A DNA stretch of 62,327 nucleotides, the filler included, from Vermamoeba vermiformis (taxonomy: Eukaryota): NCBI GenBank assembly GCA_045837725.1. It is 8 parts of 8 records of this genome, joined end to end, with 100 filler letters (N's around TTAATTAATTAA, not from the genome) between each part and the next. Parts side by side here need not be neighbours in the genome. Positions count along the whole stretch, not along the records: positions 1 to 23,734 come from JBEWZL010000028.1; 7 more parts are not named here. The stretch is one strand, 5' to 3'. The position numbers and the translations under genes were made by a program. Shown one piece after another: positions 1-22,381 of this stretch. Positions within the stretch are counted from its first letter, which is position 1. Every line of letters starts with the position of its first letter. The notes under the pieces were generated by a model that saw only the letters and a program-made list of their open reading frames with translations, made no database searches and was not told where the DNA came from.

Positions 1-60
1 GTTAAATTAGATAAAATGAGATATCTCTCGTTTTATTGAAATTTGCTATGACAAATCGTC

Positions 61-1450
61 TTAGAAAAAACGTGATGAAGGACTATTGTATGGGCCATTG
101 TATGAGGGTGTTCCCGAGTAGTAGTTTGGTGGCACAACATAGTGAGGCTCTTGGCGCATCTGAGGTATTGGTGCTTGTACGACAACAACCTTTTCCTTCT
201 CTTTCGCGTCAGCTTTCACGTGCGACAATATGCGTTGCACAACTTCATCCAATGTCTTGATTGAACTATTGACTGCCTTTATCTCGTCAGACAAAGACTT
301 CAATCGTTCTTCGATGGCAGTATGCTTTGCGTTGGTTGTGTTGTTCAAGAGTACGAGCTGACGAGATGTTTTATCATGCTGTGAACTGATGGTTGCTGAT
401 AAAGCAGAGATATTCTGTCCAATGCTTGCAACATCAGCAAGCAATTCGGTGAGCTGTGGTGAGACCTGATTCGACAGATTGTTGTCTGATTTATGACGCT
501 TACGGGCGCGGTCATCTTCACTATCAGAGTCCTCGCGTGTACGAGATCGAGTGCTTTTTGATGGCAGTTCCGAGTCATCACTGGCTGGTCTTTGTTTCTT
601 TGGGCGTGCAGTAGTTCCGTTGTTGGTCACGTGCTCTCTCCACAATTGTTCAATGTGCATAGGCTCATCGTCGTTGTTTTTATACCCATTATTGGTTACT
701 GATCCTGGTTGAACCAAAGCAAAATGATCTTCACCATCACTGTTGATATGCAGGGCGATTAACGGTTTTGAGGTGGATTTTGCCTTTAAACATGCGGCAA
801 TTGTACACACACCGTATTTCTTTGCAAAGCAATCATCGCCCTTCTCGTGGAACGCCTCTTTGTAGATGAGAGCATCAAATTCAACGTATAAGCGACTCTT
901 GTACTTGATTTGCAGTCCTTGATCGTGGTCGTAAAATTTGTGATCGATGCCTTCATCAATGAGCTTCATGCCTTTGTCTATCCACAATTCTAAATTATGA
1001 TCAGCAATCAAGACAATTATGCTGTGTACAGTTGGTCACCTACGCAGAGTTCTTTCATCGGCTTCACGTTCAGTGGCTTGTGTAGCGTGTGTAGGTGTGG
1101 GCATGTCAAGTCCGTCATCTAGCAATTTATAAGAACAGCGTGGCATCGATAACACTCACCTTCAAAATCATTCACTGCTTCATAGATGTCACGCACAGCA
1201 CTAAAATTGATCTGCTTCATGTGCCCAGTAACGGTAAGCCCCGATGCAACGACAGAGAGCACACGACTATTGCAAGTAGTTAGATCATGTAAATTGATGC
1301 TGAGGGGCGTACCGATCATTATGGTTATGCCAGCTCCATTTCGAAAGACGTAGTATTGATCCCGTTTTGATTGCACCATTTGCAATCTTGTCATTCAGCG
1401 ACTCGTGCAAAATGCACGGTATCATCACATGCGCGTCAGATAATAACAAA
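61..1450 (-). CDS. Multi-exon hypothetical protein: RPA70N-like OB fold at the N-terminus, basic NLS-like region, coiled coil; start not resolved
   Basis: Spliced translation LLLSDAHVMIPCILHESLNDKIANGAIKTGSILRLSKW..DRRVLSVV resembles the RPA1 N-terminal OB fold. ORF 61-1011 has RPKKQR/RKRHK and a heptad stretch. Confidence 0.5.
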
Positions 1451-2148
1451 CTATGAATCATCAGTTAAAATAATAAATGAAAGCAGTAAACAAATGCAAA
1501 TTATCAAGTGTCGAAGTAGTGAAGTAATTTACGTAACGACCCGCCAATAACGGAGATTTAATTTTCATACGTTGCAATAAATTAATTACCAGTAATAATT
1601 ATTAAATATTATTTACAAGGTTGATTTATGAATGAGAACAATAGATATAATTATCTCGTAGTTAATTAATAATATTTACCAATAATGTTTGAGCTTCGAT
1701 CCGGGAGTGGATGGCGGGACAATATCTCGTACTTGCAATGTAATATTATCAATAGACTCCCCTTGATAAATTCGTATAAGAACAGGGTCCAGAGTGGCTG
1801 CCGACATGTGTGGTGTTCAATAACAAAAATAAAATAAACTAAAAACAGAGTTTCAGACCCTGAGAAAACCAACTCGAATTTTATCGTATTTACAATATAT
1901 AACATGATATAAGCACCACAATAGGCACTATATAGGGTCGCAGCTATCTCACTTTGAAGGTAATCAGTTTGGTTAATTTTTTTTTAAATCCAAGCGACCA
2001 GATGTGTTTGGCTATTTAATCGAGTGATTGTATTATGAATAATTACAATAGTAACAGTAATAATATGTGCAATAACACCCATCATTGTAGATAAATTGCT
2101 GAAGCCGTCACGTGCCGATAACGCAATAATTAATTTAATAATTGTCGA

Positions 2149-4486
2149 ATGGACTGGATCTGCGATTTTGACACAACAAAAGTCTTCAATAAGGGTATGG
2201 GCATTTATATCTATCTGCATTTCATTAATATATGTAGATGAAGATGAGACAACAAGCACGAGCGATGATCGGCGGTCGTGGATTTACGAGGTTGATAGCA
2301 ATAAAATTTTTGACGGTACGTATCGTTCTACAATTAGCTGCATTGCTTACACATAATAGATATTAATAGACGAGTATCCTCAATCTATGACCCCTCCCCA
2401 AAACGCACTTACAAATCCGAGACTCGAAAGTTGCGCGTCGCGTCACCATCACGAAAGCAGCTTAAGCTATGTAATTTCAATGAAAAGCTGTTGCAATACA
2501 AGTGCTGCAAACAACTGTGTATGAGGCAATTTAATGTCCAGAAGATTGAACGCTTACGACTGCCATACTCTGAGAAATCTGAGCGCGAAAGGTACGTACC
2601 TCATGTTTCTGCTAAATGCCTGACACGATGGCAGGTCAAGATGGCTACTTGATTCCCTTAATGCGATGAAAGTTGATCAAGGAAGTGACAAGCCTCCGAC
2701 GATTTGTTACAAGCTTGACGGTCTTGAAGTCTGTCAACGCGCTTTCATCAAACTGCTTGGAATCAGTACAAACAAGCTTGCACCTCTGCTACAACAAATC
2801 AAACAAGAGTCTAGTTGCTCTGTCATTCCACATGGTAATGCCCTCAGATTGTATTCATCAGCTCAATTACAGTCGGTGCAAAGTTTTGTGCTCAGCTTGA
2901 TGTCCATATTTTTCGATGAACAACCTGATAGTGATCAATGGCACTGCCCTATTGCGCTTAACAAAAAGCTTCTTTACGCTCAATATGCTTCAGAATTTGA
3001 GGAAACGCATCGCATAGCATCGCTGAGTACTTTCTATACGACAATTTCTCAGTACGCATGGATCAAATTCCCAAAGACTACGCGGTTGGGCAAATGTGAC
3101 GAATGTGTGGAGCTCAGAATGTAAGTTTCTTCCATACTCACAGTGAAGCTAATCTTGCGTAGGAAGTTGCAACAAGCTGCTGCAGTGTCCCAAACTCAAG
3201 TTACCAACGTTCAAAAGCAAGTGGCAAAGCACAACGCATTGCAAAAGTTAGAACGGCTGACATATTCTAACCGAAAGCTAATCGCTAGCTTTTTGATTTG
3301 GCAAATGATATGGGATGGCTATTCAGGGATTTTGATTCCGCACATTGCCTGGTCTCAGTTCCCAAAATCTTGGCTCCGTCTTGCACGTTTGCGATTGCAA
3401 ATATCCGGACTTATCAACCACAACACCAAGCGACGTACTCTGTTTGTCTCAATTGCACAACAGTATAGTCACGACAGCAATTACAGCATCAATCTACTAG
3501 CCATTCACATAGTTTCGCAAATCAGAGATGGTCAGGCTCTGCCACCAACAATGGTATTTCAAAGCGACAACTGCTGGCGAGAGAACAAAAATACCTACGT
3601 TTTTGGCTTTTTTGCGGTTTTGCTGCTCAAAAAGTTTACCAATACCATCTATTTCATTTGCCTTCCTCAAGGACACACTCATACAGACATTGACCAAGAG
3701 AACGTGCCAGTGGCTATTGGACTCAAGTCACATAATCTCCTTACGGGCGACGATGAAGATGTCAAAGAGTACATTAAGAGTTGCTACAATTCGCCGCCAG
3801 AAGTGCGATTGGTAAAAACTATCTATGATTATCGTGGCTGGCTTGCCCCATATCTACCAAAGCTCACTGGGCACACAAAGCCCCATGTTTTTCGATTCAC
3901 TGTCAATGCACAAGGAAGCGTTGTAATGCATTGGCGCAATTACACGGCAACAGATGAGGAGTGGAAAGGGGGTGCAGATGGTGACGATATTGTTATCCTT
4001 CACAATATTCCAGCGGACAAACCAATCAAGATTGAACCAAAGCCAATTGACGACAAAGTGATTGAAGCGACCAGAAAAACTTACGACAAACTATCTGAGG
4101 AACAGCAACAATACTTTGAAGAATTATTCAATGCCGATCAGCCTGCAGAAGACGACACAACTGCAATTGATCTACTAGATATTGAGTTTGACAGCCCAAC
4201 AACAAATTATGAATTGATGTTCTTGCCACCACAGCAGCGTCACCATGACCAGTCCACAACCTCAGTGAAAGTGGTGCACGAGGCAGTGCACCCTGATGTT
4301 GATGCTGTCATACCAGAGACTTATCCAGATGAAGATGAATTAGATGAAAATGACTATGATGCCCCAGTGTTGATACAGCCAGTGACAAGTACTGAGTGGA
4401 TTGCACGTGAATACCGAAATATAAACACAACTGACTATGGAAGAACAAAGCGAAACAAAAAACCAAACAAGCGATATGACGATTGA
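2149..4486 (+). CDS. DDE transposase-like protein (Sola-like / DUF7869-type), 4 introns
   Basis: Motifs KCCKQLC, VCQRAF..LLGIS, KCDEC, IWDG, FQSDNCWRENKN, LPQGHTHTDIDQ, KPHVFRF. Exons join in frame through GT-AG introns from ATG 2149 to TGA 4486. Confidence 0.8.
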
Positions 4487-4583
4487 AGTCAAACAAATAA
4501 AAAATGAGATACCTCTCAATTTATTTAATACAACTTTTTTGGTAATAATACACTCTTTGAACGTGTTGTTGACAATTAAGTAG

Positions 4584-6362
4584 GTGGACATGGACACTAT
4601 TAGCACTAGCAACCTAAATCGTCAATTCTTATTCTGCTTTGATGAGGACAAAGGAAAAGGGCTCAAAAAATACAAAGCCGAGGTAATTATTATTATCGTT
4701 TCTATTATATCCCTCTCTTTCATCATATTTATTATTCTTTTTGCCCAATTCGCCAAATTTCATGTGTCACAAAGTAAAATCGTGTTCACCGTTCACCGCG
4801 TTGATTTAGGTAGTCGCCGAACAAATACAGCAATTCGTTCCCAATATTGATATTCGTCCTATCACTCAAAAAGTGCAGTCCTTGCCGCTGTCAGGCTACG
4901 ATCAATTCACGTGCTTATTTGGCGCTCTCGATAACTCAGGTAATAGGATTAACAGAGCAGTATAGACGTTGAAAACACAGCTAATAACAAGGTCAACCAG
5001 ATGCTAGATATTACATCAATAAAATGAGCCAGTATTTCGGGATCCCGCTAATTGACGGAGGAACCGAAGGAAATATCGGACAAATCACTACTTATGCAAA
5101 GGTAGGCTGGTTTAGAGTATTTCGGTACCTAATCGATAAATAGGGCATCTCTTGTTACGCTTGTGATCCACATCCAGCACCAAAAAAGTTTCCCTATTGT
5201 ACAATCCGAGATAATCCATCAACCATTCAGCATTGCGTCATTTGGGCGAAATTCACTTTTAAGTACGTACAATCTCCCTAATTTTGGCGTTATTGCTGAT
5301 GGATTTTAGTTTAATTTGGAATGAAGAGCTGATCTCAGAAGTTAATTTGACCGAAGCCGACAAACAAGACATTGACTTGAAAAAACTGTCCATGAAGGAC
5401 ACTTTCAGCAAGGTATTTACTCGGTTTAAAAGATTTGGTTTAATATTGACTTGCAGCTGTTCGGCGAACATCTCAGACTGGACAATTACAACCTACAAGG
5501 AGGAGTGGCCATCGATCAATATAGTGCTGGCAGTCTCGAACACAACATATCTGTATTTGCTAGAACGTAAGTGCACTGAGCCACGTGACTCCCTCTGACG
5601 CCATCGCAGATTTGAACAGTTAAATGACAGAGCTCAACACGGCGTCATTCTGTTCGACAAAGATGATCTTGATATGGTTGCATTCACCGCCGCATTGACC
5701 AATATTAGAGCGCATTGTTTTGGTATTCCAATGACCACCATCTTTGAGGTAAAAAGTAAGCCACAGTAACGCATGTCGCAATCTTGGCGGACGCAACAAT
5801 GATAATTGCTTTTGCAGAAATTGCAGGCAACATCATTCCTGCGGGAGCCACGGCCAATTCTACGATTGCAGGACTGATGACATTGCAGTTCATCCGACTG
5901 CTCACTGGTCAAACAATGAACAAGTAAGTACCGTATGTATCGTACTGATCGTTAATACTCACGCCATAGTATAAACAATCAGATTAAACTTGATCGAAGT
6001 ACCGAGCGAAGAGATGAAGATGATTCTCAAGACTGAGTTACCGCGCAAAACTTGTGATGTGTGTGGTGTCAATGTAGTGCGCATCGGAGTTGATGAGCAA
6101 ACGACCACCGTAGCCCAGTTTGTACAACTAGTGCGAGAAACGCGACAAATTGAGCCTTTAATCATGCTACCGTAAGCTTGTATTTGAAGTAGAAGGCAAT
6201 TAGTGACGTTCTTTTAGGGATGCATCGGTTTTGGACCCTTCAGCGACAGATTTGCTGTTCAGTCGCGTCAATTGGAACACGATCATGGACGTGGATGATC
6301 TCGACGCAGATTCATCGTCTGCCGTGCCTTTATTCAAAATCATTCTTTCCAAGATACATTAA
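4584..6362 (+). CDS. UBA2: SUMO-activating enzyme E1 catalytic subunit, UBA2/SAE2-like; 5' part with GxGxxG not found
   Basis: VDMDTISTSNLNRQFLF, ALDN.DAR, IDGGTEG, Zn pair CYAC, catalytic FPYCTIRDNP..HCVIWAK, FDKDD, IAGNIIPA.ATANSTIAG and second Zn pair CDVC. Many short introns; TAA at 6360-6362. Confidence 0.88.
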
Positions 6363-6476: not shown

Positions 6477-7906
6477 TTACTTACCGTTTTTAATGAGTGC
6501 CAAGGTGGTACTACTGCTCGGTACTATCGTTCTTCCGCCTGTCAGGTCGAGATCGAAAACGATATTATCGGCTACTTGTGAATCCGAGTCTGAATACACA
6601 TCTGACTGCGCCGAGTGCAAAGAAGACTCTGAATCAGACTCTGAATCCGAGAAGGAATCAGATAGGATAATCATGTCAGTAGCTCGTTGTTGAACTTGGA
6701 CCGTTGGCTGGGTTGCCTCTGGACTGCGATTGGTATTATTTACGTTGGTTGCACGGATTGAGCTGTTCGCGATATTCATAGTATTGACATTGTTCATGTT
6801 GTTAGCGTTCGAGTTGTTTGATTGATGCCCGTTGAAGGCATTGACCTGCTTATTAAGATTGATTGCTGGGTTGACAACGTTAGAATTGTTTAGGTTCGCG
6901 TTGTCAGCACTGGTTAAGCTGTTCCTATTGTTCGTATTATTTGTGTTAGGTATCGCTGAATTGCCAATGTTTGAATTGTTTGGGTTCACGGTGACGTTAT
7001 TGTTGTTCATTTTTTTACTCCCGCAGGACCCATCTTTTTCACCCCTGGGCTCTTTGGAGGCACTTTTGCAGGGTTTGGATGGACAATGGGATCTAAAGAA
7101 TTTCGTCGGACATTATTCTTGGCTAGACTCGGACTGGCTGGGTGAATCAAATTATTATTCGGCGCGTTGACCGGGCTGGCACTGCGGGTAACTTGTACGG
7201 GTTGATTGTCTTTGTTTGGAGACCGCTTTAGAACAGAGCGGAAATCAGTCTGGCTAGGACTCGTAGCCGCGCGGTGCATCGGTGGACTGGAGGTTTTCTT
7301 CAATCCACCTGACACCGATGTCAACATTTGCTGATTTAATTGAACAGAGGATCTCAGCCCCCCAATTCTGGGAACGGTAATCACATGCTCGTCGTCGAGA
7401 CCCACTGCCTTCCACTTGCCGTTGGCAGGATTGAATTCGATATTTTCAATGTCATCGATTCGAGGGTTTGTGCATAAGGTGTCCAAAATTCTTTTGAGAG
7501 TTGCATCGCGCACCAAATTATCCTGCGCTCTTATTAAAAAACTTTGCTAAGCGTAGATGACCAATAGTACGTACATGATCCAATTCTTTATTGCAGTTTG
7601 GAATTGGACACACGGACAGATCCACAATTGACTTGAACATGGCTATTGACTACGTAGAGATGGTTAATAATTGTGAATAAATGGATCCAAGCTCCGAAAG
7701 AATTGATCGGATGCCGAAAGAAATTCACTTTTCACTCACTTCTCTGTCAAAGCATTGGATATGCTCGCATAGGTGGCCTTTAACGGGATCTTGCAGTCTG
7801 TCCTTGCTTAAAGGGCAGTAGATCGAAATTAACTCTACATTTCGTTAACGTAATGCTCTTTACATTGCTGCTTATGGACGATCATACCTGTTATCTCAAT
7901 ATTCAT
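6477..7906 (-). CDS. SP-RING (MIZ zinc finger) SUMO E3 ligase, PIAS/Siz-like, with Asn-rich and Ser/acidic tail; 3' end uncertain
   Basis: Spliced MNIEITELISIYCPLSKDRLQDPVKGHLCEHIQCFDRE..VCPIPNCNKRI..LVRDATLKRIL..IEFNPANGKW matches the SP-RING consensus. The tail ORF 6477-7010 is in a different frame. Confidence 0.8.
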
Positions 7907-8056: not shown

Positions 8057-9289
8057 TTAATCGGATCGGTACGTTGATAAGATTTGAGAGATGTGTTTAC
8101 GGTAACTGGTAATATCGGCTTGCGTAAAATCAAACGGAGAATTAGAAAGAATGCATTCCAGATATTTCAATAAGAACACTCCGCAATCGTAGCCATTCAT
8201 TTGCTTCGGTGTTGACATGGCGCAGATACTCCATCGAGTCTGGGCTGAGACGCCTAATTCTTTAGTGAAGCATTTTTGAATTTTCTGAAACGGAAACGGT
8301 TAATATTCCCACAAGTCAGTGGAATGATCATTTGGATCTTACTTTTGCCTCTTTTTGAGCGTTAGCGCTCATCGAATCATAGATCTGAATTTGGAACGAA
8401 GCGAGATCTACGACAGCCAACTTCCAGTGTATATTGGACACATTGATAGGTATTATTAAATATTGCGCATGCAGGTAATCTTTCTGAATACAACGATGAG
8501 TGCTGTGGTGCTGCGAGAAGCAGGTCAATTACCTCAGAGAGCCACTCTTTGACGAATTTGTAGCCTTTGTCCGCCAATCCGGTGTAGAAAAACGTCTGAA
8601 AGAAGTAATATGTGTTCGGATTTCCTCCGTTGTGCAGGAATTCGCGCTTCAAATACTCTGAGTACGCGTTGACAATTGAATCGTTGAGAAAGACGCCCTC
8701 CTCAAGTCTCTGCAAGTCAGTCTTGCGCACAGGCACGCCGCCAATGATATTGACGTACAAACTCGGCGCTGACACCGCGGTCGTGCTCACTTGTGTCAAG
8801 TCCAAGTCATAGACAATCGAGTCGTCGAGAGGTTGATCCTCGCTGACCTCGAGTGGCGTGTCTTGGACCGCTTGATTATTCTGATGGATTGGCGCATGTC
8901 TCTTGTTTTCATGCAGAGAAGCAGTTGAAGCAATAACTCTCGCATTCTGGTCCTTCAGCGTGTTTGGCCACGAAGATCCATTGTACGACTGTTGTTGTCG
9001 CTGAGATACCGCTCTTGCGTTGTAATTAAGATCATTTCCTGAATATGACGGTATTAAAGGTCGTTCTACCGATTCTCGTGCCGAATAGTCATATTTAGCG
9101 AGTGGTTTCTTAATCTCGGCGACTGCACCAATTAAAATTAATTAAAAATCAGAAATTCAACATCAAATTTAGGAGAAATGGAAAAAATAATACCTTCGTT
9201 ATCTGCTCCGGTGTCGCACAACGAAAGCTGAGCAGTTGCAGGAAGTTATTACTAGTAACAGACGACTGACTACGTACCCAGCAGCCCAT
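8057..9289 (-). CDS. ULP1: Ulp1/SENP-family (peptidase C48) SUMO protease
   Basis: DLQRLEEGVFLNDSIVNAY, FFQTFFY, IIPINVSNIHWKLAVVD (His), YDSM (Asp), PKQMNGYDCGVFLLKY (Gln/Cys), PFDFTQADI..YR. Exons join in frame. Confidence 0.92.
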
Positions 9290-9418: not shown

Positions 9419-10113
9419 TTACAAGAGTGGGTATTGAGCCTTTTGTTTCGTAATGCGTGCGTTGTATTCTGTAATATTACTGAAGCAAAGATCAGATCCA
9501 AACTATCGTGTCAAGTGTCAAAACTTACTTGGTGTAGAGTTCTAACGCGTCTCTATTGGCAGGAGAATAGGGATTTGGATTTTCAAGCAAATCTTGCATT
9601 GCAAGAAGGATCTAAAGGTTCGGTTAGGAGTAAAAAGAATAAAGAGAATGACACTTGCCTGAGAGATACCGACTCCCACGTGCCAATCGTCATTAAATAA
9701 GCTCAAACACACTCTACCTGAGCTAAATACATTCATGTGAAAGAATCCAGGCTTGAAATAAACGACAGGAGCTACGGCAGGATGATTACTACCGAATTGG
9801 ATCGTAAATGTGTATGTTGCTCCTTCCCATGGTGTCTGCGATCAAAAAGTTTTAGCGAAGTATCGTATATATACAAGGGCTATAATTTCTAATTACGTTT
9901 TCAGGGCCGGGAACGCCTGCTTCCCAATGCAACCAATTTTCCTTGCCTCCTTCTTTAATTGGACGTGCGAAGAAGTTGCCAGGTCGATCCTTTGAACGAT
10001 TGTGAGTAATATGATTCGGCGTCTCAGAGTACTGCACCTACCCGAATGCCTCGTCGTTCAAAATTTCTGAAATCTGCCATAAGGCTGCGCACCGAAGGAG
10101 AGAGCTCGGTCAT
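9419..10113 (-). CDS. UBC9: SUMO-conjugating enzyme E2, Ubc9-like, 4 introns (one GC-AG)
   Basis: Spliced: DRPGNFFARPIKEGGKENWLHWEAGVPGPENTPWEGATY..FFHMNVFSSGRVCLSLFNDDW..ISQILLAMQDLLENPNPYSPAN..EYNARI. Aligns by eye along Ubc9, with the catalytic Cys in VCLS. Confidence 0.9.
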
Positions 10114-10259: not shown

Positions 10260-10611
10260 TCAAAACCCTCCTTCTGTTTCGGCCATTACATGTAACTTTG
10301 CACCATTCGTCATTTGTAACTGAATAAATGGATTAGTTTGATCGAATACGTGAAGAATTGCTTACTTTCTCAGGCGTTTCTGTCATCGCGACTTCTTTTT
10401 TATTGAACACCCACTTAATAGTGCTCGTGTCTTTGCCGAACTTAGCGCAATAAGCTGCTTGAACATCCGTTAAAGGATTTTTACTATTTACTACAACATT
10501 CAAACCATTGCCCATCTGTTCGTCGCGTATTTAGTAATGTCGCTATCAACAGACTTAAGAACGTACCCAATCACGGACGGATATTTTAATATTCTCTCCT
10601 CCTTGTGCCAT
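10260..10611 (-). CDS. Divergent SUMO-like modifier, 84 aa, ending GG-F
   Basis: Exons 10611-10567, 10515-10366 and 10319-10260 give MAQGGENIKISVRDWMGNGLNVVVNSKNPLTDVQAAYCAKFGKDTSTIKWVFNKKEVAMTETPEKLQMTNGAKLHVMAETEGGF. It has the SUMO-type PL..V..AYC and TP..L.M..G patterns and a di-Gly. Confidence 0.85.
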
Positions 10612-10717: not shown

Positions 10718-11453
10718 ATGGAGCATCAACCAGTCATAATTTCGTTATTGCATCCAGGCACAAATAAGCGCATTAAAAAAGCGGTCATTGGATGTAATTG
10801 CAGTCACAACTCCGCTTTTGATCTGGAGGTAAATTCGAATTCTTTACTGTAAAAGAATAGATTAACTTTTAATTAATTAGGAGTTTAAACGAAGCAATGA
10901 AATTACATGTCCCTTGTGCAGAAAAAGCTTGAAAAATGCGCAGGTTAGTTTCCCAAAGTGACGCAGGTTAGTTTTGACTGTTTTGACAGGGCATCACGGA
11001 ATTGAAGCGCGCTCGATTAATTTCAACCATTTTAAAAGCCGTGAAACACCAACCAAAGGTTGTTGCCGTCAAATTGTGGCCTAATGAGGACTGGGCACCC
11101 TTATCAGCGGGTAAGATTAAACAAAGAAAGTTTTACTAGCTAATAATTCACTTGTAGATATGAAGCCAGTTGTAATCGAGTTAAATCTGACAAAATCTTC
11201 GGCGCCGATCGTGTACGATTTGGATCTGACGCAACCAAAGCCTCAGCAAGCACCGAGTCAACCCGCAGCACAGCAACCAACACCACAAGAAGCAGAGTGT
11301 GCTGTTTGCTATAGTGCACCACCTAGTCACGCATTCGTGCCTTGCGGTCACTTTGTGTGTTGTGCTGAATGCGCAGATCAAACCTTTCAAACTCGCAAAA
11401 AATGCATAATTTGTAACGAGCCGATTAGCCAAATATTAAAACTGTTCCACTAG
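10718..11453 (+). CDS. SP-RING-like + SIM-like motifs + C-terminal C3HC4 RING protein
   Basis: Exons 10718-10828, 10881-10943, 10990-11110 and 11158-11453 join in frame: ISLLHPGTNKRIKKAVIGCNCSHNSAFDLE..ITCPLCRK, then VVIELNLT and IVYDLDLT, then CAVC..FVPCGHFVCCAECA..KCIICNEPI. Confidence 0.82.
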
Positions 11454-16789: not shown

Positions 16790-18639
16790 TCCTCTTTGTA
16801 CTTGGATTACTGGACCTGGGCCTCAGACCGTACTATTCAACTTAGTTGTTTGTCCGTCGGTCGCCATTTCATTGCCTTGTTGAATGGTCAATCAAACGCT
16901 TTCAAGCAATTCGGAGGTTCTTTTGAGAATAGTAAGTGACAAGCCTAACGAGTATGTTAACTAATCTGACGTACCAGGACTTCGTTCCTGCCCTCTTCCA
17001 ATTACATCTGGTTTTTCCGAAATCTATGATCACTATGTTATAGATGTCGCTGATAATAATTTCTTGAACATCAACGTCAAGGAAATAACTGCGGATTATG
17101 TCGAGATCTTTGTGCAGAAAGATCGCCTCCCTACAACATCTGATAATCTCGATCGATACACAGGCGACACGAACAACAAGTTCCTCAGCTTGGATCCTTG
17201 CACAGTCTCTGCTGGTAAATATTACATCTCTATTTGGGGAGGTTCGGGTGGTCAAATGCAGCTTACCGTAAACACTGTGCCCCACAAGTGCGTCACTCCG
17301 ATTACTTCTGCATTCTCCGAAACGCTCGTAATCCACTCTGGTCACTGGCTGTACTACACATATGGTAATTGCCTAATGTCTGTGACATACGCTGACCGAT
17401 TGCTAAAACAGATGTCAGCGCCAATCAAAATCAATACGTCGTGTTTTTAGCTCAGCCAATTACAGGCACCACATCTACTTACATGCAATATGACGCACAG
17501 CCTACATCGAGTTATTATGCGTTGTATAACAGCAACAGCGGTACCAAATCGTTGCCAGCATCTCCGTGTGACATTCAAGCGGTGAACACAGTGTATTTTG
17601 CCGTTCGTTCCTTCGCTGACCAATCATCTGTCGCACTCTCGCTCCTGACCAGTATGTGGATAGCCTATTCAGAAAATGTTATCTAACTATGTCGCAGGCA
17701 ATGTCACATGCCCGATTGAGTTACGTAGCCACGTACATTATCTTTCTGGTCTGGTGACAACTATTGGACAACAACAACTCGATTTTCATTCGAGGTTACT
17801 GCAAATATGACCCGTAAGTAAGATTACTAAACTTAAAAGCAATACTTACGAAGCATAGCCATGGCTATTCGCTTGTCCGTGTCGAGTCAGGTGTCGCAGG
17901 CGGTGTATCTCGCATTCAATCGAGAGCCCACGACCTCCGCTTATGACTACTACAGCTACTCTACAATGTAAGTACTGTGTTAAGAATCCTGGCCAGAAGT
18001 ACTTACGAACTGTTTTAGAAATGTTCCGCTTACATCATTCGCAGTCGGCAAGTGGCACGTGATGGTCAAAGGCAACGCCAAGCCTTTCACTCTTACAGCT
18101 AGCTTTGGTACGTAGAATTCACTGAGATATCTTTTGCTAACGTGGTACAGACTCGTCTGCATCGGCTGCTGTCCCCAGCTCAAATCCTTCTTCTAGCCCC
18201 GTTGCCAATAATGACATCTGCAGCTCGTTTGACTCGTGCTCATCGTGCACTCCCGTTGGAGGCTGTGGCTGGTGCTCGTACAGCAGTACTTGTCAAAAAG
18301 GTACGTAAATGCTGTCTTCCACTCAGCTCTAATGTTACATCAGGTGACTTCTATGGCTCTGACAGTTATTGTCCAACGGCCTATTGGAACTACGCCTCGT
18401 GCCCTGTTGAGCCTGTAACGTGCTCAGCTTCTTCGTGCAGCGATTGCTTCGGACAAACTGGTTGCGTCTGGTGTGCCACTGCGACAAGCTGTATTCCGCG
18501 GTTGAGTGCTAACTCAACGTGTCTGAATTACACTGAAGCCGCTCAGTGCACAGCTCCTGGCAAGGTTAGCAACGCATTGCAGATTAATGCTGTCGATGTG
18601 TTATTATCCGCTTTATCAGCTCTTGTCATGTACTTGTAG
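16790..18639 (+). CDS. Cell-surface protein with PSI-like Cys repeats and a GPI-type hydrophobic C-terminus; 5' end unresolved
   Basis: CSASSCSDCFGQTGCVWCATATSC and a second similar repeat, repeated beta-rich extracellular modules, hydrophobic tail; many introns. Confidence 0.6.
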
Positions 18640-19686
18640 AGCTTTCTTTTATTGTTAGCAGAATAAATTTATTACACTTACCTCAAACACTGTCACTCGT
18701 TCACAGTAATAATTTAGAAAATATTTTACGGCACGTTGATGAAAATATCTGTAAAATTTTCCACCCATAAATACAACACAAATTGTTATTTTAATTAATT
18801 TAATTATTTACCGCTTTTTAGAAGCAAAACAGGATCGGTTGTGCAAAATCTCCTACATACTCATAAATTGGCGACAGCCTACAATATGTTCTGTGTCCGT
18901 CAATTCCATCGAGGTACCAACAACAATTTGACGTACGTGTTCGCTCGACAGGATCAAAAAGGAAAACAAACGCGGTAATTTTTTTATTACCCACGCCAAG
19001 CCCTACCAACACCAACAACAAGGAAGCCGCGAAAACCATACATTAAAATCGTAAATTACGAACCAATGGAGCCTTACAACTCACAGGCGCTATAAGATCT
19101 TAAGATCACTGAGAGAAAAGTGTATTTTACGAGTAGTTGTAAGTATTTTTGACATTTTATGGCAGGTTATGTGCCCTGGGCGTTTTACCGAAGTGTTCAT
19201 AAAGTTATATATCTGAGCGGTTTAAATAATTATTTCTGCCCGTAAATTACTAATTATTTTGAAATTACTTTTACTGCTTTATTATTCATAGTAATATGCC
19301 GTAATTGATTTATACGGATTGTCTTATCCTTATTTTCGAACCTGGTAATATAAGATCTCGTTTCTTCTCTTACTGGAGCGAAGTCATCGGCAGATTGGGC
19401 TCGGTGGTTAATATTAATTTTGACAGGGATGCTGGTGGTGAAATGAAAGTTTAGGCACGATAATATCAGCAGTTGGAGACATGTAGACGTTACAACAACG
19501 CATGTCTAAAATAATGCGTTACAATTTCTTTCGCACGGAACGAATTCAAAGCAAACCAACTGCCAATTCAATCTCAAAGTCGGTGATTGCCCGCTCCAAC
19601 CTCCAATTCTTTTTTTTGTGATTTGCGCACGTGTGGCTCAACCTCTTATTGTGTTGTTCTTTTAATTCGCTTTATTCAACAACACA

Positions 19687-21849
19687 ATGAATCGCGCACC
19701 ACGACTACCATCACTCTATTTTGTCTGCTTGTTAGCTCTTGCTTCAATCGCGCTGGTAGAAACTGCCAGGTAAATTTACATTGCCTAATTAAGCACGGTA
19801 ATTCCTGATACTAATTGTTTATATTACAGTTGGGTTACGTCTCCAGAGCCCGCGGGTTATACAGGAGACGACGGCACTGCTTCGCTTATTGCTCCGTGCG
19901 GCAACGATGCTGCTGGCTATCCTTCTACAGCGCTAATACGTTTCGGGTAGGTAATCGCATTGTGGAGACAATTTGGCTAATACGAGGTATTATAGACTCT
20001 TGCAACTAGAATTAGTGAAGAACGCAACGGTAACGGGCTACAGCTTGTCCATCGCGGCCAACCAAACGGATTTCGCAACTACAAGTCCGTTTTTCACTTG
20101 CGGGCAAAGTAAGCGCACTCTTTTTATGTCAATAGTGACGCAAGTTGTAATGCATCCTTAGGCACTGATTGCTCGCTATCCTCCTCCCGAAATGACAGAT
20201 CGGTAGTTATTCCGTGGTCTGGTCCCGGAATAATCCAATATCAAGCGACGTCCGAGGGACAAACTTGGTAAATTGGAATTTATTGCTCAGAACATTAATC
20301 ATTAATCCCTTCTAATAGGTTCAACTGTTTTGCTGCAGATGTCGAATCTGGCCCAATCAATTCGTCAACGATTATTGGCTTAACAAACACCTCTGTTAGC
20401 TTCGTTCTTGCCGTACAACCGAAGAATTTTGTTCTAATTCAGAGTAACTTTCTCTATAGTATTGAAACTACAAGGTATGCGCTGACTATCCAGATCGCGG
20501 ATCTGATCGAGTTCAGAATTAACGTTTTGTCAGCGATAACTCCAACCTCGAAGTGAATTACGCCAATTCAGATCGTAGATATTTCGAGACTCTGCTCAGT
20601 AACGTAGGTACCTCTACCGAGTCCACCGCTGTCGCTACGATTGAGGCGCTGAATGTTACTGCAGACCCCAAGGTCAACATTACTTATCTTAGTAAGTGAA
20701 GCTATCCAATTGCAGAGTTAATGGCATTGCTAACCGAACAACGTCAGATCCCGTTGTCGTCAATCCTTCCAACCCTAGCGCAGCGCTAGCAGCTGACTTC
20801 AGCATTCTTCTGATTCAACGCAACGACGGTGGCTTGGTAGGCTTGCAATCAGTCACTATTGCCGGCACTTACACCTACAACGCTCTGTACGAGTCACCCG
20901 ATTCAGTAGCACTCAAATCCGATTCTGTTTATACTCCAACGACGGTAAGTAGCTTGTTGGGCATTTAAAGACAGCTGCTAACGTCATTTTGTACGCCAGA
21001 CTCAGTGCTTCAACGTTGAAGGATACGATCAGTATTTCCTCATTCGCGGTGGCGGTGACGTTCAAGTGACATTGGACACGACTCGTCCTTGCGCCGATTC
21101 GTTCTTCCCTTACTTTCCCACTCAAACGCACTTCGTAATCTACATTATTTTGCTGGCAATTGGAATTTTTTTCTCGCTCGTCTTTTTCAACCCTTGTTTT
21201 CAAGATTTGATGAGAAAAGGCCAAGTGTATGACGGTAAGCACCGTTGGTGTTTAAGACTTCTTAGTTTAACCAATGCTTTACCTAGGCGACGTCACACAA
21301 TGGGAGATGGAAGTGCATTACACTAAAACAACGACGAAAACAATCGACGTGGCCACAGGGCGAACAATTGACAAGAAAACTTCAACAAGTATTACGTCGT
21401 GTGATTGTACCGTCGAAGTAAGTTGTTCTTGCATCGAGTGACGGCGATTATTAACTCAGATTGTAGGTTGAGTATGGTGGAGTCAAGGACACATTTAACG
21501 GCTGCTGCTTGTGCTGCTTCTCGAAGCTTCGAGTGTTGGCATATCCTGATCGACTTACGTGCTGTCCAATGTTGTATTACAAGGGCTGGATGGGCTACAT
21601 CTTCTCATGTATCTTCGGAGTAGGTCCGATATTCGCCTCGGGAGTCATTGCTTTCATCAACATGGGCATACGTAAGTAGTACTAAGTAGTGCGTGCTTGT
21701 GCTGTGCCTTGCTAACACTTGTGCTCGCAGTTGGAGAGCTCGAGGAACACGGCGGTGCAGCACTCCAATTTTTCCTTGGCTTGATTTCGTTCGGTCTAGC
21801 TGGCGTGTTTGTAATTCCTTGGTGGAAGATCCCTCGCTGCAGGAAATGA
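19687..21849 (+). CDS. Signal-peptide protein with an extracellular domain and a multi-pass C-terminus
   Basis: MNRAPRLPSLYFVCLLALASIALVETA signal peptide, Ser/Thr-rich exons, TM FVIYIILLAIGIFFSLVFF and further hydrophobic exons; TGA at 21847-21849. Confidence 0.6.
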
Positions 21850-22381
21850 GCAGCTCGTTGTCGTAACTAGTAAATTAGTATTTTATTTGTTTACATGTGA
21901 AACCACAAACGATTCAATCCACCAAAATTATCGTAGCAACTCTGAACAGTCGCGATCAACCATGAGCTATTATTTAAAATAACAGAAGCAAGATCAAGCT
22001 GCTCGGATCGGCATCTTTCGTTTAATTGAGAAAAAATCATATTTAAATATTTACAAGCATGGACATGCAGAAATTAATTATCGAGCTAGAAAAAAGGTAA
22101 TTTTGGTTCATCTGACTTCGTATCTGCAGATTTGTGCTGCTTAACGCATATATCTTGCCGTTAGATTTAAAAACCACAAGGTTTACAAAATGTAAAATTT
22201 TTTAAAGCTGCATTTACACTTATTTTATGTTGTGTCACGACGGACTAATTTACTGCGCGGTGCAATGCAAAATAAGTTGACACACCGCTGACAAGATTAT
22301 TTTAAAATTGGAACTCCAACGTAAAAGCACTTATACCGCATTTTCCCAACAGAATCAACACAACAGCAACAAGTCCCTGTT

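Follow-up and report, generated by a model that had tools for sequence, protein, structure and literature searches.

A transposon at the end of exon 1 of a UBA2-like E1 gene, part of a putative second set of SUMO-pathway genes in Vermamoeba vermiformis

Introduction

Does a DNA transposon that lies directly against a SUMO-pathway gene carry that gene as cargo, or has it broken the gene? The question is raised by a 62,327-nt stretch of the Vermamoeba vermiformis genome (assembly GCA_045837725.1; this whole stretch is called the window below), in which the gene of a DUF7869 transposase is followed by a gene for a UBA2-like large subunit of an E1 enzyme. The initial annotation of this DNA had noted that UBA2 homology starts at a splice acceptor 97 bp past the transposase stop, and this holds: the transposase frame ends at 4,486, the acceptor AG ends at 4,583, and homology runs from 4,584. 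It had seen no GxGxxG (ATP-binding) exon in between and no AOS1 partner in the window, and we find the same; the motif occurs in no plus-strand frame of positions 1-4,600, and tblastn with the AOS1-like protein and the exon 1 described below gives no match in the 62 kb at E 0.01. Two explanations were left standing by that annotation: insertion of a 4.5 kb unit into UBA2, with the 5′ exons and perhaps AOS1 left of position 1, or a truncated E1 copy.

Positions 1-23,734 of the window are contig C28 (JBEWZL010000028.1) of a genome of 43.3 Mb in 309 contigs, so position 1 is a contig end. Four sequencing runs (X1, X2, X13, and X21) were placed as contigs on an overlapping contig, C36 (positions 17,800-27,799). 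X1 and X2 are DNA runs of one sample, the probable source of the assembly; X13 is labelled “DNA?”, yet its contigs are spliced, and we therefore read it as RNA. The contigs of these runs drop rare forms.

Insertion Site and Expression of the Empty Allele

Contig C36 overlaps the window from 4,514 on, at 99.7% over the first 12 kb and 96-97% beyond, with a 5 kb indel. We read C36 and C28 as two haplotypes of one locus, the alternative being a recent duplication. Both features that the initial annotation had proposed to look for upstream, a glycine-loop exon and AOS1, are present on C36. Exon 1 of the UBA2-like gene is located at C36:25981-25835 and consists of 49 codons that include the GxGxxG loop (Pfam ThiF, E 4.4e-9); the AOS1-like gene is just upstream of it on the same strand (C36:27177-26039). 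Because C28 begins at the left end of the transposon, the exon and the AOS1-like gene are hidden from that contig. On C36 exon 1 ends with TTTG immediately before the element, and the same four bases, the last four of exon 1, stand at 4538-4541 (forward strand) as the right copy of the target site duplication (TSD). The 97-bp gap therefore stands, and its composition can now be refined: the last 51 bp of the transposon (4487-4537), in which the right terminal repeat lies, the 4-bp target duplication, and intron 1 of the UBA2-like gene, a GT-AG intron of 42 nt (4542-4583, forward strand) that matches intron 1 of the canonical UBA2 gene (on C216) in position and phase, and whose removal we infer from the length of the spliced RNA contig. 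It is thus the first of the two explanations, insertion with the 5′ exon and AOS1 to the left, that is borne out.

The empty site, which had been suggested as a further check, is found in both DNA runs: in each, a contig (depth 298.2 in X1, 38.4 in X2) has a joint that skips 968 bases of C36, with four letters that fit both sides. In X1, contigs of the element are about 14-16 times deeper than this one, a depth that is not a copy number. A spliced contig of X13, 1,887 nt long, shows what this allele produces. Nine GT-AG joints are listed for it within the UBA2-like gene, whose modeled exons sum to 1,406 nt, equal to record positions 482-1887, and form an open frame of 464 aa. Two unlisted joints leave exactly 153 nt for exon 1, which is its length on the empty allele, without bases of the element. 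The bin depth agrees (99.9 predicted, 99.8 observed, and 101.0 expected with the element's bases). At the level of contigs, transcription of the empty allele yields a spliced message for a full E1.

Read from exon 1, the frame of the inserted allele meets a stop after 13 codons of the element, and a null allele is the most likely result. The cell has two safeguards against this loss: the empty allele remains, and canonical UBA2 and AOS1 genes are found elsewhere, on other contigs beyond the reach of a reading of the window. Very probably, the transposon hits the end of exon 1 on one allele or in part of the cell population. It disrupts one allele and does not carry a SUMO cassette; as an event, such an insertion is ordinary.

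Several observations count against this account. No junction between the element and the UBA2 flank is found among the contig rows listed for the runs, so the inserted allele is known from the assembly only; as these rows are incomplete and rare forms are lost from contigs, either a heterozygous or a subclonal insertion is possible. The element on contig C36 is cut down to its bases 1-791 and 4514-4537, which are separated by 157 unassigned bases, and has indels near 700-790; this partial element looks like an assembly fault. X1, X2, and X13 come from one sample, perhaps the source of the assembly, and are not independent, and X21, the sole independent RNA run, has 0 reads here and provides no test.

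Other explanations of the junction fare worse. The inserted allele might be rescued if splicing removed the whole element, with a GT at the element's fourth base as donor and 4,583 as acceptor, which would add one lysine; that GT is in frame, and one predicted intron of the AOS1-like gene also begins with GTT. However, this would take an intron of 4.58 kb in a gene whose introns measure 42-127 nt, and the RNA contig has an exon of 153 nt rather than 156, although a low-level form could escape the contigs; we consider such rescue very unlikely. Even less credible is mobilization of the SUMO genes by the transposase as cargo of a large composite element. Adjacency is the only thing at this locus that speaks for it, together with the ULP-like domains held by two other DUF7869 elements of the genome (on C183 and C216; see below). 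Against it, the element's termini and TSD enclose 4,540 bp without any SUMO gene, the element splits exon 1 from intron 1, the four other identical copies have unrelated right flanks, and seven queries find no SUMO-pathway match in 11 element-related loci (the left flanks of four copies lie outside this coverage); the existence of the empty site refutes it, and the carry-or-disrupt question is settled as disruption. Finally, the proposal that the E1 copy is a truncated pseudogene, its ATP-binding exon lost or never present, is true of contig C28 read alone but can be dismissed given exon 1 on C36 and a spliced contig that gives the full open frame of 464 aa.

The Transposon

The element comprises positions 1-4537 of the window (forward strand) plus three A left of position 1, giving 4,540 bp with the termini AAAG...CTTT. 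Its left end is fixed by three junctions (on C36, C184, and C266) and its right end by five flanks. Identical copies are found on C171, C80, C9, and C258 (0 mismatches over 4,535 bp in all four), each at a contig end, and the five copies have five different right flanks. The terminal inverted repeats (TIRs) are imperfect and 42-44 nt long: the left one is at 1-39 (forward strand), and the right one, which is also repeat D4, is at 4494-4537 (reverse strand), with one 2-nt gap over 44 nt against the left end. A right-flank search found an allelic site for two of the four other copies (C156, on which the C80 site stands empty, and C125, which begins at the site) and none for the copies on C171 and C258. 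With its identical copies, TIRs, and TSD, the element is a currently active cut-and-paste DNA transposon, and one so active might serve for mutagenesis in this organism. Pieces of the element accompanied by low-complexity filler also occur (C184:271095-271236, C266:69548-69655, and C6:37588-37874); they are probably collapsed or low-frequency insertions in the assembly.

The transposase gene is spliced (2232-4486, forward strand), with a main exon at about 3162-4486 and inferred 5′ exons; its DUF7869 domain (PF25273, E 1.8e-47) covers 3380-3946. Three aspartates are invariant in all nine aligned family members of this genome. The predicted fold (mean predicted local distance difference test score, pLDDT, 77) is weakly nearest to IstA and Tn5 transposases and integrases according to Foldseek (best E 6.9e-4); the top matches are to the IstA transposase (E 7e-4 and 9e-4), with template modeling scores of only about 0.2. 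A second long frame lies on the reverse strand (61-1035; 324 aa from stop to stop) and matches no Pfam family above the cut-off; long frames on the minus strand, alike in position, are also seen in sister elements on C84 and C175. The A+T-rich palindromic stretch at 1585-1760 has copies of the TIR word TATCTC and may be a shared promoter or a set of internal transposase sites. X13, the spliced run, covers the element with contigs of low depth.

The genome contains 32 DUF7869 matches, which form several families, some of them with identical copies. Sister elements for which both ends were found (four from ten further loci scanned, and a fifth from a separate comparison) all carry 4-bp target duplications. 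We take Sola to be the likely superfamily of this DUF7869 element, and we assume that the TIRs, the 4-bp TSD, and the three invariant aspartates, which it has in common with Sola-type transposons, are the link. Unlike the Sola type, the element has a second gene. The target motif AWWT, given as the hallmark of Sola1 in PMC3845634, fits only one of the six target sites here (TTTG, AATT, AACC, ACTA, GTTC, and AAGA), and we therefore do not file the element under Sola1. Sola itself is described as an RNase H-like superfamily (PMC5751038; PMC4455052; bioRxiv 10.1101/2021.09.26.461848).

Two other DUF7869 elements of the genome contain a ULP-like protease domain: one (C183:3-2426; L121) has it ahead of the transposase in a single frame of 808 aa, and the other (C216:10779-13486; L122:3280-5987) has two tandem frames. 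These are true ULP-bearing transposons and in this respect resemble Zisupton/KDZ elements and Kaonashi Mutator-like elements (MULEs), which we take to be ULP-bearing as well. Unlike them, the element inserted in the UBA2-like gene has no ULP domain, and the ULP-like gene next to it lies 3.5 kb outside the element and has introns. Another DUF7869 element of about 6 kb, from a different family (C239:612763-618830; L124:1264-7331), is about 2.5 kb from the canonical AOS1 gene, probably by chance. A search of viral contigs with the transposase gave 13 matches, none of them confirmed.

Genes of the Block

The insertion result removes the cargo reading and reveals the nature of the neighboring block. 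From the AOS1-like start to the stop of a small RING gene, the block spans about 9.3 kb excluding the element, between two kinase genes, and holds seven genes: AOS1-like and UBA2-like (forward strand), PIAS-, ULP-, UBC9-, and SUMO-like (reverse strand), and the RING gene (forward strand).

Exons 2-11 of the UBA2-like gene are located at 4584-6362 (forward strand). In addition to the GxGxxG loop of exon 1, the protein has the NLNRQ motif (exon 2) and, in an alignment to canonical UBA2s, the catalytic cysteine (Cys178) and both CxxC zinc pairs. Its best solved-structure match, from the Cys exon, is SAE2 (E 5.3e-9), and summed tblastn bits are highest for the host UBA2 locus (251, vs. 187 for UBA6-like, 178 for UBA1, and 144 for UBA3 loci). 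The AOS1-like gene encodes a stand-alone protein of 299 aa, or of 317 aa should the next intron be spliced, with no GxGxxG, in line with an inactive adenylation subunit (about 300-350 aa). A protein search with its last exon confirmed 0 of 234 candidates, a weak test that needs shared 5-residue words.

In the X13 contig, three AOS1-like exons are followed by a 59-nt intron (C36:25988-26046; L101:8189-8247) and then by the whole UBA2-like gene. With this intron, the stop codon of AOS1 and a poly(A) signal are lost, and the AOS1 reading continues out of frame for 56 nt into the UBA2 frame, where it ends. A contig that spans two genes does not show a single transcript, and we offer a true bicistronic message only tentatively, the alternative being two overlapping transcripts of the same strand merged by the assembler. 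Simple leaky scanning is not favored, given the 13 ATGs of the AOS1-like frame (about 16 expected). A fusion of AOS1 and UBA2 in frame, by way of a 27-nt intron, can be rejected, as it predicts a bin depth of 112.4 vs. 99.8 observed.

The PIAS/Siz-like SP-RING gene (6480-7905, reverse strand; inferred model) has a zf-MIZ domain over cut-off at 7743-7829; its protein is short, and no SAP or PINIT domain was seen in it. The ULP/SENP-like protease gene (8058-9200, reverse strand; 5′ end approximate) encodes a Peptidase_C48 domain in which the His, Asp, and Cys of the triad are present. The UBC9-like E2 gene (9419-10113, reverse strand) encodes a predicted protein of 161 aa that keeps the catalytic cysteine, and UBC9/SCE1 entries fill the top 20 rows of its solved-structure search (best E 1.5e-11); a GC-AG intron is predicted in this gene at 9612-9658. 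The SUMO-like modifier gene (10260-10611, reverse strand) encodes a predicted 84 aa ending in di-glycine plus one residue, and among solved structures it is closest to SUMO-2/3, although single chains match weakly (E 0.24-0.5). The small RING gene (11160-11453, forward strand; zf-C3HC4_3, E 9.4e-14) has two motifs resembling SUMO-interacting motifs (SIM-like) ahead of the RING, a layout like that of SUMO-targeted ubiquitin ligases (STUbLs). The RING region is covered by an X13 contig that may stem from either strand; RNA in X13 covers the two E1 genes and this region only.

The motif I-V-x-D/E-L-D-L-T, which is SIM-like, occurs five times in the AOS1-, ULP-, and PIAS-like and RING proteins and once in 418 kb of other loci. 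A shuffle test reached this in 10 of 5,000 shuffles; because the motif was defined from the same proteins, the test is biased, and the rarity is suggestive only.

Origin of the Block

The canonical SUMO-pathway genes of this genome, UBA2 (C216), AOS1 (C239), UBC9 (C200), and SUMO (C123), are on four separate contigs; in the exon used as query, the canonical UBA2 shares 97% identity with a named E1 B protein. Compared with them, the block's UBA2-like gene has 34% identity and 5 of 10 introns in common, the AOS1-like gene 31% and 2 of 5, the UBC9-like gene 39% and 2 of 4, and the SUMO-like gene 25% and 2 of 2, where the intron positions of the canonical, UBC9-like, and SUMO-like genes are predictions from GT-AG and frame. 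Identities of 25-39% with 11 of 21 intron positions the same in position and phase argue that the block is a diverged duplicate of the eukaryotic SUMO pathway. The comparison points to duplication of eukaryotic genes at the DNA level, probably followed by fast divergence and gathering into one place.

Acquisition of the block as an operon from a virus or bacterium would fit its operon-like compactness, but the 11 introns coincide with those of the host's own canonical paralogues, and the parts match SAE2, UBC9, and SUMO; SUMO is moreover reported absent from bacteria and archaea (PMC4327156), and we regard such a transfer as highly improbable, with viral contigs searched for the transposase only.

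HMMER over 1.84 billion representatives gave 960 E2 matches, with a best identity of 56% among the 150 listed, and no orthologue of the block's E2 was seen among those 150. A protein search with the UBC9-like frame confirmed 0 of 1 candidates (again a weak test dependent on shared 5-residue words), and none of 188 pattern matches in metagenome contigs was confirmed.

In two trees, the UBA2-like protein forms a long branch (1.9-2.9 changes per column vs. a median of 0.61) that meets the outgroups in both; its sisterhood with host UBA2 is not rejected (approximately unbiased test, p-AU 0.117). The first was a quick tree, and the second omitted UBA3 and 11 of the 31 database rows of the first. 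The canonical host UBA2 groups in both with a set including dictyostelids (SH-like approximate likelihood ratio test, SH-aLRT, 89-90), a placement that weakly favors an amoebozoan host.

Function of the Block

We lean towards the block being a working second SUMO-type pathway. In such a pathway, the ULP-like protease would trim the SUMO-like precursor to its di-glycine; the AOS1-like/UBA2-like pair would adenylate the modifier and hold it on Cys178; the UBC9-like E2 and the PIAS-like E3 would pass it to targets; and the RING protein would read the mark through its SIM-like motifs and add ubiquitin. The cascade would run apart from canonical SUMO. In favor of function are the open frames and catalytic residues kept at 25-39% identity, for which long selection is needed at such divergence, and the splicing of both E1 genes. 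In the UBC9-like gene, four of the five placed coding variants are synonymous, a small sample from a test of 15 of at least 40 variants.

Other findings speak against a working pathway. Unless it is spliced out, a run of seven bases at 7009-7015 breaks the PIAS-like frame, by a stop or a shift, ahead of the SIM-like region; the run has 8 bases on C36 but 7 in X1 and X2. In X13, depth is nil over the SUMO-, UBC9-, and ULP-like genes and most of the PIAS-like gene (bins 669-5010), although such a hole alone proves nothing. The databases searched yielded no orthologue. As to the identity of the genes, the trees leave the UBA2-like branch unplaced, and the AOS1-like exons score about equally against UBA1, UBA7, APPBP1, and SAE1, so that the name AOS1-like rests on size, position, and two shared introns. 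Runs X3-X10, which hold 0.22-0.28 of the block's words vs. 0.17 for X13, were not used as evidence.

Part of this evidence would also fit a block that is a decaying duplicate, in which the insertion is tolerated since the genes no longer matter: the long UBA2-like branch, the interrupted PIAS-like frame, the four genes with no RNA in the sole informative run (X13), and the lack of a close relative of the E2 exon among the 1.84 billion representatives (at best the 56% given above for the 150 listed). Set against these are the other frames, which are open with catalytic residues kept, the spliced E1 genes, and the mostly synonymous, if few, E2 variants, and we think decay unlikely, while giving it more weight than the other rivals. 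Returning to a working pathway, the most complete version of it, a full second SUMO system built from duplicated canonical genes in one operon-like block, insulated by a co-evolved interaction motif in four of its proteins, with both E1 subunits translated from overlapping frames of a single spliced transcript, induced by stress or infection, and with the insertion as a natural E1 knockout, is a possibility that we hold with some reserve; that the role of the block is a conditionally induced response, taken by itself, is a conjecture to which we give slightly less credence still.

Comparison With Known Systems

Each step of the canonical SUMO pathway (SAE1/AOS1-SAE2/UBA2, UBC9, PIAS/Siz, ULP/SENP, and STUbL) has a counterpart in the block. 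Unlike the canonical genes on their four contigs, those of the block are packed in about 9.3 kb, and its two E1 genes are joined in one spliced contig; its E1 large subunit has 464 aa vs. 657 in the canonical protein and is without the acidic, basic tail.

The block resembles UBA7-ISG15 and UBA6-FAT10 of vertebrates in that, as predicted from its genes, a duplicated E1 serves a separate modifier. To our knowledge, the vertebrate genes are not in one cluster. UBA7 and UBA6 derive from the ubiquitin E1 (UBA7 by duplication of UBA1; PMC11354881) and are single-chain enzymes, whereas in the block a heterodimeric SUMO E1 is duplicated along with a whole adjacent cascade. The ubiquitin operon of Caldiarchaeum and bacterial BilABCD have the modifier, E1, E2, and peptidase side by side, with a RING in Caldiarchaeum (PMC11354881), a layout that the block shares. 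Those operons, however, are prokaryotic and intron-less, use a JAB peptidase, and are not SUMO-derived, whereas the block is eukaryotic, spliced, and spread over both strands.

The growth of SUMO systems is attributed mainly to peptidases, E3s, and modifier paralogues (PMC4327156), and no clustered second SUMO set was found in the literature searched, which was mostly open-access and covered by titles and the starts of abstracts. If the reading is true, a duplicated SUMO E1 and E2 with their own adjacent modifier would be a eukaryotic counterpart of the prokaryotic ubiquitin operons, and, with both sets in one genome, would offer a natural setting in which to study how a newly arisen ubiquitin-like pathway is insulated from the one it arose from.

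Additional Observations

The genome holds further diverged members of these families. In another UBC9-like gene, on C179 (L113, about 1370-2330), the catalytic cysteine is replaced by alanine and the N-terminus carries a short extension. Two more diverged UBA1-like E1 genes are located at C152:355343-355999 and C209:230464-231005, one of them with an altered catalytic region, and the E1 paralogues of this genome exceed the usual set. Within the window, positions beyond 23,734 are outside contig C28; between 23,735 and 58,102 there are seven pairs of 44-N runs, with 12 bases within each pair.

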